NCBI GenBank assembly: GCA_964016885.1
Contig: OZ024740.1
Location: 146,010,001-146,074,000, forward strand
Source: Eledone cirrhosa
Taxonomy: Eukaryota
Reading direction: 5' to 3'
Length of the DNA: 64,000 bases
How positions within the stretch are numbered: the stretch's first letter is position 1; each line of letters starts with the position of its first letter. This document shows positions 20,392 through 63,946 of this stretch, one piece after another. Under the pieces are notes generated by a model. The model ran no database searches. It had not been told where the DNA came from and saw nothing but the letters and a program-made list of their open reading frames with translations. Both the position numbers and the translations under genes were made by a program.

Positions 20392-20725
20392 GAGGCACAT
20401 GGCTTAGTGGTTAGAGCATTGGGCTTGCAATCGAAAGGTTGTGAGTTCAATTCTCAGACCGGGTGATGTGTTGTTTCCTTGAGCAAGACACTTTATTTCA
20501 CATTGCTCCAGTTTACTCAGCTGGAGAAATGAGATGATAGGTCTAAGTTCCCTATCATTCCACTGCAAAGTGGTCGTGGAGGTGCCACGGCAAAAAAGCA
20601 CCCAGCACTCACTGTAAATGAGGTTGGTGTTAGGAAGGGCATCCAGCTGTAGAAATCAAGCTAGAAGCAGTTCCCGTCCCACCCTTGCAAGCAGGGAAAA
20701 AGTGGACGTAAAATGAAATGATGAT
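20392..20725 (+). mobile_element. Composite tRNA + CORE-like + RTE-tail SINE (near-identical copies at 32589-32912 minus and 60468-60803 plus)
   Basis: A box TGGCTTAGTGG, B box GAGTTCAATTC, TTGAGCAAGACACTTTATTTCAC, 3' half matches RTE 3'UTRs in this window. Confidence 0.9.
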
Positions 20726-31603: not shown

Positions 31604-31847
31604 CCTTTCAGCTATAAATTTGGAAACTGATGACGTAGCGCTAGAGGATTGCAACAGAAGCAAAGGGTGAGTAACAGTCAAAGATGTTGTTTCTGACTGG
31701 TTGTTATCAAGGCAGTGCTCCCTTACCCTGCTCTCTGCTGGAACTCAATACAGACGAAAACATATAGTTTTGGTTACACACCCATTGCTTCTGCTGGAAT
31801 CCACTAGATGGCGCTACGTCATCAGTTTCCAAATTCATTGCTGAAGG
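31604..31847. mobile_element. Small fold-back element with ~72-bp arms, related to 63302-63940
   Basis: Arms 31604-31675 and 31773-31847 (AATTTGGAAACTGATGACGTAGCGC and its complement). Confidence 0.8.
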
Positions 31848-33260
31848 CTTTCAAAATGTTTATTTATAAACATACCATATATCGTTAGATATACAAAATA
31901 CTCTATTGTATTATTTTTTATACTGTTCAAAAGTCTGTGGAATACAAAATTCAAATGCATGAAACTCAAAGACTACCTGTATTGAGTTTGAGAAGATCAA
32001 TATGAACATGTTAATGAAAGCCTGCTGTATATACTTTTATATAAGCCAAGAAATATGTGACAAAAATAAAAGATCAGTGGTAAAATGGAGGGTTAGCGTA
32101 TTTGAGGTCAATACTTTGATAATTTTCACCAACTTCAAATTCGACATAAATAAGGTGCTAAAATATGGAGTGATTATTTCACAAAGAAGCACTATTTTTC
32201 TACATTTACTACATCGTCATGAGTGTTGTTTATGTATTCCCAACAAATTTTTATAATTTGAACTTTTTAATACATAAATATCCCCTATGCATACATGTGC
32301 ACACACACACATGCGGCAACTGTTTTTCTCTACAACTTAATTATACTATTACTTTCAATCTTACTTCTGTCTTGCATTTTATTGGTCTTGCTCTTGCCCT
32401 TCCTCTCCACTCTCTTGCTTGCTGTCTCCCACCCTCCGTTTTATTCTGAATCCTTATACAATTTTCTCTTAGTCAATCTCTTTCTTTCAACTATTCCTTA
32501 TTCATCAATGTCCCCTGTATATAGTTTTGATTTGCTCCGATTAGACAAAAATCCGAAAAACTTGAAACTGTAAACAATCATTATGTAATCATCATCATCA
32601 TCATTTCATTTTACGTCCACTTTTCCCTGCTTGCAAGGGTGGGACGGGAACTGATTCTGGCTTGATTTCTATAGCTGGATGCCCTTCCTAACACCAACCT
32701 CATTTACAGTGAGTGCTGGGTGCTTTTTTGCCGTGGCACCTGCACGACCACTTTGCAAGTCCCTATCATCTCATTTCTACAGCTGAGTAAACTGGAGCAA
32801 TGTGAAATAAAGTGCCTTGCTCAAGGAAACAACACATCACCCGGTCTGAGAATTGAACTCACAACCTTTCGATTGCAAGGCCAATGCTCTAACCACTAAG
32901 CCATGTACCTCCATGGAGTTGTGAAATAAAAACTATACTCTAAATAACATTTAAAACATTTTAAATGTCAAAATATTTAAACTACCTAAATATATTAAAA
33001 AATCACACTATAGATGGGGTTTGGATTTTTGCCCATTTCTCAGACATAAAATAAGGGGTTGACTTATAGTTGAGTATATACGGTAAGTAAAGAGCTTTAT
33101 GGTTTGCATAATTAATGTAATCAGTATATAATTCTTATGGTTTTGTAGATTTAATCTGACATAATTCAGTGGTTTCAGATTTTTATTAGAAGATTCAAAT
33201 GAAATCATTTAGGACTTTAAAATTTCAATATATTCATTATTAGAAAATTCTATAATTTAA

Positions 33261-59214: not shown

Positions 59215-60960
59215 AAAGAATCAGTTCTCTTCTATTTTATGGTATTCTCCTCCACTATCACTAGGAATCAGGAAAAATTTAGCTCACCTATTTTTTAATG
59301 CTCTTGATAAATGCTTCCACAAAACGCATTAATATAGTAGTTTTTTTAATATACATACAATTAAACTCTCATACTCAACCACTATGAATATTGCCCAAAA
59401 TATAGCTACAATTCATAATAGAAATCTCAGAACTATCCACATGGAATTAACCCCTAATGATAATCAGCCAATCACTAATAGTATAATCAACTCCCTGTTT
59501 AACAACAATTATACCAATAACGTGAACTATGAAAATTGAGCGGCATCATTGAATAACAGTGGAGGTAATTGCAATTGTAAAAATAGTTAATAACTGTTTT
59601 GACCGTAATTTAGTTTACAAATGCATTGTCAACACAAAAGATAAATCTTACAATTATATTGATGCCACTTCCTCTAAATTTAAGGAAAGGAGGTATAATC
59701 ACTGCCACAAGAGAGAAGATAAAAGATTTAGTTTTGCTTTATCTGAATTAATTTGGTCTCTCAAAAATAAAAATATAGAATATTCTCTTTCTTGGCAAAA
59801 ACTTTCTAGCGCTTTACCTTATATAAATTCTTCCATTTCTAAAGGTTGTAACTTATGTACCACTGAAATTCTTTATATTCTTAATAATAGGAAAATAATC
59901 TATATATATAAAACTGAGGATGTCTGTCTGTGTGTGTGTGTGAGTTTGAATCCCTAAAACTCGAGAAACACCCAACCGACTGTTTTCAAACTTTACATGT
60001 GTATTACTTATGTTTCAGGGAGTGTTATGCACATAAAAAAATTCCACTTTTTGATCCCCTAGGGCCCGCATTAGGTGAAAAACTGCGTTTTTTCAGCTTT
60101 TTAGGGTTTTTTTGAGGCGTTACGTCAGACCGATTTCCTTGAAATTGTAACTATGTATTAGTCAGTCTCTTCTTATCGTGAGCAAAGAAAATCCAACTTT
60201 TTATGGCCTAGGGCCCGCATTAGGTGAAAAACTTCATTTTTTTTCAGCTTTTTAGGGCTTTTTTGAGGCATTAAGTCTAGCCGATTTTCCCGAAATTTCA
60301 AGGCATATTATGCACATCCCCTAGGGCCTGCATTAGGTGAAAACCTGCATTTTTCCTGCTTCATCGAGTAAAATTTTAAAGATTATCCTGCCATCAGAGT
60401 ATTTGGTTTATTTTCTCTACATAATGATAATCAGCCAATCACTAATAGTATAATCAACTCCCTGTTTGAGGCACATGGCTTAGTGGTTAGAGCATTGGCC
60501 TTGCAATCGAAAGGTTGTGAGTTTAATTCTCAGACTGGGTGATGTGTTGTTTCCTTGAGCAAGACACTTTATTTCACATTGCTCCAGTTTATTCAGCTGT
60601 AGAAATGAGATGATAGGACTGGGGTCCCTATCATTCCACTGCAAAGTTGTCGTGGAGGTGCCACGGCAAAAAGCACCCAGCACTCACTGTAAATGAGGTT
60701 GGTGTTAGGAAGGGCATCCAGCTGTAGAAATCAAGCCAGAATCAGTTGCCGTCCCACCCTTGCAAGCAGGGAAAAAGCGGATGTAAAATGATATAAAATG
60801 ATATTGTCCAGGCATGCAGTTTTTCCACGATTAGGTCTGTTGGCGGCCCGCGTTCCAAAATACCTTATCCGGGCAACGCCGGGTACCACTGCTAGTTATT
60901 AATAAAAAAAACATCTGAGATCTTCAACTTTACCTCCACCGATTCTCAAAAATGTTCCAT
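59215..60960 (+). mobile_element. Neptune-like Penelope-like element remnant (thumb + GIY-YIG), interrupted by a Helitron
   Basis: FNIHTIKLSYSTTMNI..HN, NLVYKC..YIDAT..FKERRYNH..ALSELIWSLK..CNLCTTE; resumes INKKTSEIF after 60895. Confidence 0.85.
59899..60895 (+). mobile_element. Non-autonomous Helitron containing a SINE
   Basis: A|TCTATATATATAAAA 5' end, (TG)n, three CTAGGGCC(C/T)GCATTAGGTGAAAA subrepeats, hairpin CCGGGCAACGCCGG, CTAG|T 3' end. Confidence 0.9.
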
Positions 60961-62049: not shown

Positions 62050-62952
62050 ATTATGAAAATAAAACAAAGAAGCCTTCAATACATCAAAAGTCTTTATTAG
62101 CCAACAATGTTTCGTCCTATTAAGGACTCATCAGGGCAATCAAAACCACAAGAAGTACTATCGGCCAATACAAGCCGAAAACTCCGAAGAATATGGAGTG
62201 TACATACACTAAAGTATTGGAAGATTATGGGTAAAAATATATAATAAAAATCACTAAGGAGGTGATAACATTTTGAACCATATTACAAATATAGTCCAAA
62301 GCAAAAAAAACTAGAGCTAAACAAAGGTGGTTATATAGAGCGGGAATTATAGTACTATATGTAATACAATATAATATAATATAATATACTTGTAACAAAA
62401 TTAAAATTAAAATTCACAATATACATATGTATATATGTACGCACACGTACGCACATATACATATACATCAATACACATTTCCATCATGAACAGCACAAAT
62501 TAAACTTTATTAAGAGTTTAAATATAAATGAGCATAATAGGAATAAAAATAAAAATAATACGTATATCTAATATACAGTATAACATGAAGTAATGAAATG
62601 ATTAAAAGTAACACATATAATATATAATAAACTATATAACTATATAATATATAATATAATATAATAGATAATCTCCGGTTAATTTACACAAACAATATAG
62701 ATGTCACAATAATACTATAATAATAATATATAATATATAATGGCATGTAAGTTAACAAATCAATTCATGTAGAGTTACAGAGTAGGTGAGAAAAAAATAT
62801 AAATTGTACAATACCCAAAATTATGATGGTACAAAAATATAAACATCTTACATGATTGCCCTGATGAGTGCCCTGATGATAATAGGACGAAACATTGTTG
62901 GCTAATAAAGACTTTTGATGTATTGAAGGCTTCTTTGTTTTATTTTCATAAT
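62050..62952. mobile_element. Fold-back element with ~93-100 bp hammerhead-containing arms (PLE-derived)
   Basis: 62050-62142 is the reverse complement of 62853-62952 apart from a rearrangement at 62869-62879. Confidence 0.85.
62096..62141 (-). ncRNA. Intact minimal type I hammerhead ribozyme
   Basis: Minus strand AUUGCC-CUGAUGA-GUCCU uaau AGGAC-GAAA-C auu G-UU-GGC(U)AAU. Confidence 0.88.
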
Positions 62953-63301: not shown

Positions 63302-63839
63302 CTAACACTCTCTGGTGTTGTCCAGCAGAAACAAGGGGGACAACCGTCTATGCATTTCAGGCTTGACTGGCCATCGTCAGGACCATACCTCCTACTGCTC
63401 TGCGACTGCTGGACTTGAAAACAGCCGAGAACATATAGTTTTCTCGTCTGTGTAAATGAGGTGATTAATCTCATTTGCATATGAAGCTGTATAAGTTGGC
63501 TCAACTTATAATAGTAAAGCAACAGGATTGCGCTTCAAGCATAGCTAAAATCGTATTTCTTTCGAAATACAAAATTTGTATACATATTGTATAAAGCTAT
63601 GCTTGAGGCGAAATCCTATTTCTTTTCTATTATGAGTTGAGCCAACTTATGCAGCTTCATATGCAAATGAGATTAATCACCTCATTTACACAGACGAGAA
63701 AACTATATGTTCTCGGCTGTTTTCAAGTCCAGCAGTCGCAGAGCAGTAGGAGGTATGGTCCTGACGATGGCCAGTCAAGCCTGAAATGCATAGACGGTTG
63801 TCCCCCTTGCTTCTGCTGGACAACACCAGAGGGCGTTAG
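63302..63839. repeat. Long inverted repeat, ~245-bp arms, 48-nt spacer
   Basis: 63302-63546 vs 63595-63839; mirrored ORFs 63271-63522(-) and 63637-63885(+) give the same peptide. Confidence 0.97.
63758..63795 (+). ncRNA. Minimal type I hammerhead ribozyme (identical copy on minus strand, 63346-63383)
   Basis: GUC-CUGACGA-U-GGC cagucaa GCC-U-GAAA-UGCA-UA-GAC; palindromic stem III (UGCA). Confidence 0.8.
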
Positions 63840-63946
63840 CCCCCCCCCCCCCCCCCCCGGTGTTCGCATAGCTACGTCTTCCTAAAATCGTATTTCTTTC
63901 AAAATACGAAATTTATAAATTTCTTTTACGAACTCTGAAGGTAATT

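Follow-up and report, generated by a model that had tools for sequence, protein, structure and literature searches.

A long hairpin with twin hammerheads in Eledone cirrhosa as a probable 5′-inverted copy of a dispersed non-LTR retrozyme with a U6-type upstream box

The question raised by this locus is whether a long hairpin that carries a hammerhead motif in each arm is itself a mobile unit, built to fold, or the outcome of the way in which something smaller was inserted. The hairpin lies in a stretch of 64,000 nucleotides of the Eledone cirrhosa genome (contig OZ024740.1, positions 146,010,001 to 146,074,000), referred to here as the window. Its arms, 63302-63546 and 63595-63839, are 245 nt each and 96% complementary, with a spacer of 48 nt, and the near-perfect pairing announced by the original prediction holds, with 10 mismatches in 245 nt. 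Six of the mismatches fall within the inner 40 bp, one at arm position 57 and three within the outer 30; placed along the arm, seven occupy positions 13-57 and three positions 216-240, and positions 58-215 are mismatch-free. The inner part of the arms is indeed the more diverged, as had been noted, and a 158-bp identical tract lies farther out. Both arms also carry the same outward-facing motif, CUGACGA...GAAA UGCA UA, with cores at 63761 (+) and 63380 (−); the accompanying claim that these hammerheads are minimal did not stand, stem I being long and internally looped. The window copy has open frames of only 69 and 78 codons and folds into a rod of −474.6 kcal/mol. Elsewhere in the window, three diverged copies of a repeat of about 150 nt lie at 60035-60355, and a tRNA-like match at 20400-20457 (Rfam, 31.2 bits) is probably the head of a SINE.

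A search of the 3.0 Gb assembly with positions 63595-63935 as query returned at least 2474 candidate places (counts of this kind are lower bounds), and the best 40, which were scored, all showed 89-100% identity over the unit. The genome copies whose search had been recommended thus exist, as a repeated family that we call F1. When 30 loci were fetched, the sequence upstream of one unit turned out to be the end of another unit, from which it follows that the repeat is a circularly permuted monomer. The hairpin is real, yet no fold-back family is built on it; what recurs is a non-coding monomer of about 335 nt with a type I hammerhead, a GC content of 0.454 and no long frame. At five of 61 distinct loci two hammerheads stand in direct tandem with a period of 315-337 nt, the window copy not being among them; long arrays did not appear in the matches. 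The features by which retrozymes are recognized, namely a type I hammerhead in the unit, a non-coding length of 150-450 nt with GC below 50%, and at least two consecutive hammerhead units, were each looked for and found. In the window, the forward copy (63545-63917, +) spans 373 nt or about 1.1 monomers, and the inverted arm (63302-63546, −) is a 5′ partial copy of monomer positions 63595-63839. The direct repeat of the spacer sequence, correctly pointed out beforehand, is explained by this arrangement: 63545-63580 (+) recurs at 63882-63917 and is the end of the preceding monomer in a partial tandem.

The way in which the copies begin and end indicates how they were made. Over 61 loci, 30 copies have a short 3′ end, placed just after a small stem-loop, 29 have a long one about 43 nt further on, and two read on; the window copy belongs to the short class. 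The stem-loop, at 63889-63908 (+) just before the first 3′-end class, is found in sister families too and is a candidate signal for the start of reverse transcription. A dinucleotide repeat follows 54 of 59 3′ ends, compared with 774 and 1013 of 5000 control windows (15-20%), and the window copy is one of the five 3′ ends that no such repeat follows. An inverted piece of 40-371 nt with scattered breakpoints stands at the 5′ side of 18 of the 30 copies, the other 12 having no inversion; in a second set of 39 copies, chosen on the 3′ part only and overlapping the first by 8 loci, 26 are inverted. All the marks of Penelope-type insertion are accordingly present: copies truncated at the 5′ side, partial tandems, 5′ pieces in inverted orientation, a choice of two 3′ ends, and flanks of the (TA)n type. 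The two 3′ ends about 43 nt apart fit the Penelope "tail" between two reverse-transcriptase start sites, and the mobilisation by a Penelope-type enzyme proposed in the original prediction is supported by this anatomy.

Taking into account that the inversions are variable and are a described by-product of Penelope-like insertion, the hairpin is best regarded as a by-product of insertion as well. The first model for the locus had instead held that it represents a fold-back family whose arms are selected as a rod that masks twin ribozymes by design. The stability of the window rod and the frequency of inversions speak for that model, which is nonetheless largely refuted by the variable breakpoints: fixed terminal inverted repeats common to the copies, as in fold-back or MITE families, are absent, with 12 of 30 copies uninverted and the rest inverted over 40-371 nt. 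Nor are closely matched arms general, since those of 25 other loci with long inverted arms differ at 234 of 4201 positions and have a longest identical run of 81, against 158 in the window. The identical tract itself (63652-63809, partner 63332-63489) bears four derived bases shared by the two arms, three of which occur in at most one of 29 other copies. Among the four is a stem I mismatch at 63757, present in both arms and private to this locus (0 of 29 other copies), and outside the tract each arm has private changes of its own. The identity of the arms is probably due to gene conversion between them, which would also have spread the stem I mismatch to both. A damaging change that has come to stand in the two arms alike speaks against twin ribozymes being selected for, and taken together these observations make the fold-back model highly improbable.

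A third origin of the hairpin, or of its identical tract, would be an error of assembly or polishing. The 158 identical bases are atypical, and in the three contig sets compared no contig spans the stretch. The arms, however, hold 10 private differences and have distinct ends, and the same type of inversion is seen in many copies, so that an artefact could account for the identical tract only; we consider it very unlikely. The preferred reading remains that of a 5′-inverted insertion homogenised later by probable gene conversion.

The hammerhead of the forward copy occupies 63754-63799 (+), with its core at 63761-63767, stem II at 63768-63782 with a U·U at its base, a GAAA segment and a palindromic stem III; the same hammerhead, with the same stem I mismatch, lies at 63342-63387 (−) in the inverted arm. 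Sequence and folding together place it inside an extended, internally looped stem I (63727-63821, +), in which 63727-63735 pairs with 63813-63821. Among 76 F1 motifs matched without insertions or deletions, copies with such changes being left out, C3-G8 is present in 73, GAAA in 73, stem III in 74 and the individual stem I pairs in 68-74, whereas the first pair of stem II is U·U in 48 and A-U in 23. The full core together with six stem I pairs is found in 42 of the 76, the window copy not being one of them. Across the five families described below the hammerhead sequence differs and the pairs are kept, stem I pair 1 being C-G, C-G, G-C, U-A and G-C, and in family F2 U3-A8 is found in nine of ten. 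The fold is kept by paired changes across the five families, and variation within F1 is mostly decay and not compensation. The conserved type I fold and the retrozyme-like logic anticipated for the element are supported. Self-cleavage, predicted here from sequence, would occur after 63792 in the window copy (+), and the palindromic stem III would allow two hammerheads to cut as a dimer. As an isolated motif the hammerhead does not adopt its own fold at minimum energy (z +0.78), and for whole monomers the fold is more stable than that of shuffled sequences (z −3.98 and −1.89). No Rfam hammerhead was found in the hairpin at the gathering threshold or at E ≤ 10, and matches to miRNA families in it, far below their cut-offs, were rejected as hairpin artefacts. 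A separate inverted pair in the window (62050-62142 and 62853-62952; 73 nt, 100%) contains minimal type I hammerheads followed by AATAAA and is probably an ordinary Penelope pseudo-LTR remnant; its matches to RF00163, at 62096-62140 and 62855-62906, score 29.1 and 23.0 bits, short of the cut-off, which is 34.

The enzyme that copies the repeat was sought among the GIY-YIG loci of the host. GIY-YIG matches number 10,596 candidates in the genome, of which the best 150 were scored, and many of the loci examined end in (TA)n and carry U3-A8 hammerheads; one family also has the U·U in stem II. Two loci have open frames of 938 and 1096 codons with reverse-transcriptase matches, one of them with a scored GIY-YIG domain, and in the long-frame Penelope-like loci a cysteine motif precedes the nuclease, a feature already reported for Neptune/Nematis. 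The locus with the 938-codon frame (L228, C1:145869500-145876500), a long Penelope-like element with reverse transcriptase and GIY-YIG, lies some 135 kb from the window and has two pseudo-LTRs, each with a U3-A8 hammerhead. No DNA similarity was detected between F1 and 34 Penelope loci (30 of the 150 listed GIY-YIG matches plus four long-frame loci). Matches of the sister families F2-F5 at Penelope loci were considered as a link to a partner and rejected, being separate insertions beyond the Penelope ends. By class, the partner is likely to be a Penelope-like element.

The same survey bears on the alternative that an autonomous Penelope-like element, through 5′ truncation, left the monomers behind as its solo or tandem pseudo-LTRs. 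Every insertion mark is Penelope-like, which agrees with this alternative, and so does the closeness of Xenopus retrozymes to pseudo-LTRs reported in the retrozyme literature. Copies longer than one unit, on the other hand, continue into another unit and not into an ORF; none of the 30 loci has an adjoining reverse transcriptase and GIY-YIG ORF, the longest sense open frame within 1400 nt upstream being at most 174 codons in 30 of 30, and only short unrelated repeats are shared. Together with the lack of similarity to the 34 Penelope loci, this makes the pseudo-LTR origin unlikely. The original prediction had named a 5′ inversion of a Penelope pseudo-LTR as the case that would undo it; the inversion is there, and what is inverted is a non-autonomous monomer with no ORF upstream. 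With good confidence we therefore interpret the window element as a dispersed, 5′-inverted copy of a high-copy, non-coding hammerhead repeat of about 335 nt, a likely non-LTR retrozyme copied by a Penelope-like reverse transcriptase and endonuclease.

F1 has sisters in the same genome. F2, F3 and F4 give at least 913, 1236 and 2938 candidates, respectively, and the alignment scores among F1-F4 are above those of all 50 shuffles; a fifth family, F5, was seen at L002. The decayed relative that had been pointed out at 31604 is a decayed related element as claimed, and belongs to the sister family F2 (internally inverted copy, 31607-31860). F4 (L072, L122-L133) is younger, with 93-96% identity, and shares the tail stem-loop and the U·U hammerhead. 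In F5 (L002:2275 and 2694; L029; L095) the hammerheads stand 419 nt apart in direct tandem. The CTCF-like motif expected downstream of the hammerhead is present at 63823-63835 (+), with one mismatch to a 13-mer CTCF-like pattern; such a match arises in 12 of 2000 mononucleotide shuffles. It is found in 43 of 60 F1 copies and also in F2. As its conservation is no higher than that of the rest of the monomer and it is absent from F3-F5, it is not counted as a core part.

A further element of the monomer concerns its transcription. In the host, a box of the form ATG(C/G)(A/T)AAT(G/T)AG is located at −76 to −78, with a TATA at −30, in three independent U6 loci, in one of five U6atac loci and in the single RNase MRP gene, and it is absent from 8 of 8 U1 and 3 of 3 U2 loci. 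Host U1, U2 and U5 genes have TCAG at −55 to −58 and a TATA-like motif about 26 nt later. The box is also lacking in six U6 matches with a located start (of 14 further ones) and in four U6atac matches. Boxless U6 and U6atac copies (L101-L109, L118-L121), several of them in or beside (TA)n or other microsatellites, are likely retrocopies. Some U6 genes of the C19 array (L037, L038, L040) have a SINE-like insertion between TATA and start, with the TATA region duplicated.

The box also occurs in the retrozyme. In the window copy it lies at 63659-63672 (+), mirrored at 63469-63482 (−), and a TATA-like motif stands at 63704-63711 (+), 43 nt after the box start. The original prediction rightly listed an octamer at 63661, which the box contains, and missed the match to the host Pol III promoter box. 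A profile built from the five host boxes was tested on the ribozyme strand against 200 dinucleotide shuffles. Its best site precedes the core by 101-102 nt in F1-F3 and by 85 nt in F5, and for all six copies tested from these families only 0-1 shuffles reached the same score; no box was found in the two F4 copies tested. Few parts of F1 vary as little as the box, in which 5 of 377 positions differ over 29 copies, compared with a mean of 4.0%. F5, barely alignable to F1 otherwise, keeps 11 of 14 box bases, with flanks that match at only 4 of 13, 10 of 31 and 4 of 24 positions, so that the box is almost the sole part of that region that can still be aligned. The TATA-like motif stands 42-43 nt after the box start in four of the five families (42 nt in F5), as compared with 46-48 nt in all five host genes; the repeat thus has a box of the U6, U6atac and MRP type and a TATA outside the host interval. 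When the host spacing is imposed, 2-22 of 200 shuffles score equally high, and the choice of the wider range was made with the data already in view. The longest T run is of 3-4 in 60 of 62 F1 segments, compared with 5-10 T in host terminators; F5 has a run of six. A Pol II promoter of the snRNA type, with TCAG 27 nt before the TATA as in U1, U2 and U5, was tried and rejected, a profile of 12 host promoters being non-significant on 8 of 8 copies (14-165 of 200 shuffles).

Box and TATA suggest, as far as motifs can, an internalised type-3 Pol III promoter on a circular or multimeric RNA. The main evidence against a promoter is the spacing mismatch, the absence of the box from F4 and the predicted base pairing of the box in the folded monomer. 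In the same retrozyme the box may instead be a generic octamer enhancer that binds POU proteins and serves transcription by Pol II or read-through, or it may be kept for RNA pairing. Such a role would be consistent with a spacing 3-5 nt shorter than in host genes, with the spread of F4 without a box and with the pairing of the box in the monomer fold; metazoan retrozymes are, moreover, seemingly promoterless according to a review (PMC7761336), and newt satellite 2 is cited as transcribed by Pol II from an snRNA promoter (PMC2220036). It fits less well with a match that spans 13-14 nt, beyond the 8 nt of an octamer, with the constant distance of the TATA-like motif in four families, with the constancy of the box across F1, F2 and F5, in which its pairing partner differs, and with the non-significant Pol II snRNA profile. 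This alternative is a serious contender that we entertain without adopting it, and a working internal type-3 promoter in the repeat is likewise put forward tentatively.

Whether such a promoter could persist depends on the template that is copied. In the second set of copies, 28 of 39 reach upstream of the predicted transcription start (63734-63738), the length being measured on the upstream unit at the few tandem loci. In these 39 copies the 5′ ends pile up neither at the predicted start nor at the cut site, a single 5′ end lying within 2 nt of the latter. Copies that pass the start could not come from a linear monomer released by cleavage, nor from a transcript confined to the interval between start and tail, and we infer that the template of reverse transcription is a circle or an uncut multimer. 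With a template of this kind the upstream promoter would travel with the element.

Monomer, hammerhead fold, insertion anatomy and the resemblance of the box to that of host Pol III genes are all observed, and from them we propose the following cycle. In the model, transcription would begin with a tandem source copy and would probably be driven by the U6-type box and TATA inside the monomer. Two hammerheads would cut as a dimer through the palindromic stem III, and the RNA so released, one unit long, would be open to circularisation. A nick in (TA)n DNA would be made by the Penelope protein, and reverse transcription would start at one of two sites by the conserved stem-loop, the circular or uncut multimeric RNA being copied for a variable length. 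Extension of the template past the start site would bring the upstream promoter into new copies, and strand switching would generate the inverted 5′ piece. The window hairpin would be a by-product of these events, homogenised later by probable gene conversion.

The hairpin as such is ordinary; what the family may mean lies in the box. It is conceivable, and is advanced here with reserve, that four or more retrozyme families form a long-lived lineage with an internalised host upstream Pol III promoter of the U6/MRP type, the circular or multimeric RNA made by the ribozyme carrying the promoter, once copied, into every full-length insertion. Ordinary retrocopies lose external promoters of this type. 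If true, the element would be a self-expressing circRNA cassette, with thousands of type-3 promoter boxes scattered over the genome and CTCF-like sites in two families. For animal retrozymes, the field has yet to settle both the mode of transcription and the protein that does the copying, and this family offers handles on the two: a box and a TATA to mutate, and Penelope marks that tie a retrozyme to the Penelope machinery by anatomy and not by co-occurrence alone. The frequent inverted copies would give long double-stranded RNA if read through; the ADAR or Dicer substrate suggested earlier would be possible for any read-through transcript. As a by-product, the analysis provides host Pol III and Pol II snRNA promoter motifs (L031-L033, L116, L117; L146-L169), which could serve in guide-RNA expression constructs.

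A metazoan non-LTR retrozyme with Penelope-type mobilisation is an already known kind of element. Such retrozymes have been described in coral, mussel, axolotl and many vertebrates, and F1 resembles them in being a non-coding repeat of 150-450 nt with GC below 50% and a type I hammerhead (Cervera and de la Peña 2020, PMC7229834; Li, Clavereau and Pollet, bioRxiv 10.64898/2026.07.22.740005). They occur as monomers, dimers or multimers and have been proposed to be mobilised by Penelope-like elements via circular RNA (PMC7229834; bioRxiv 10.64898/2026.07.22.740005), and the U·U at the base of helix II is common to F1 and the axolotl HHR_Amex2. Unlike the described retrozymes, F1 consists mostly of 1-1.7-mers that lie dispersed and show the complete set of Penelope insertion marks, namely inversions, (TA)n and two 3′ ends. 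Published cleavage tests of similar elements were often negative, with 8 of 9 Xenopus retrozyme dimers failing to cleave. Pseudo-LTRs belonging to Penelope-like elements (Neptune/Nematis and Poseidon clades; bioRxiv 10.1101/2021.04.23.441226; PMC11167929; PMC4209133) show the same partial tandems and inverted 5′ copies, and these elements share with F1-type repeats AT-rich or (TA)n targets and hammerheads, including the U3-A8 variant. The optional tail between two reverse-transcriptase start sites is 30-40 nt in Penelope-like elements, compared with about 43 nt in F1; that of the anole element sits between two internal start sites, and in vitro the anole Penelope worked on RNA that had not been cut, its own hammerhead being dispensable. 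F1 differs from pseudo-LTRs in having no attached ORF and no similarity to those checked in the host genome.

Promoters inside hammerhead repeats have precedents of other types. In the Schistosoma satellite the Pol III promoter is gene-internal and tRNA-like. This satellite is cited with its Pol III promoter in PMC2220036, together with the snRNA promoter of newt satellite 2 as driving Pol II. Newt satellite 2 (PMC2114352) comes close to F1 as a 330-bp hammerhead repeat with dimer cleavage through a weak palindromic stem III; its internal snRNA-type promoter, however, is cited as serving Pol II, whereas the F1 box matches the Pol III genes U6, U6atac and MRP and not U1 or U2. Among the literature matches listed (subscription journals, supplements and repeat libraries lying outside their scope), none described a cephalopod retrozyme or a U6-type promoter inside a retrozyme, and the supplements of PMC7229834 and bioRxiv 10.64898/2026.07.22.740005 might contain F1. 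The F1 monomer thus holds a host Pol III-type upstream box where the review has metazoan retrozymes seemingly promoterless and relying on read-through (PMC7761336), and this U6-type upstream box inside the monomer is what is new relative to known retrozymes.
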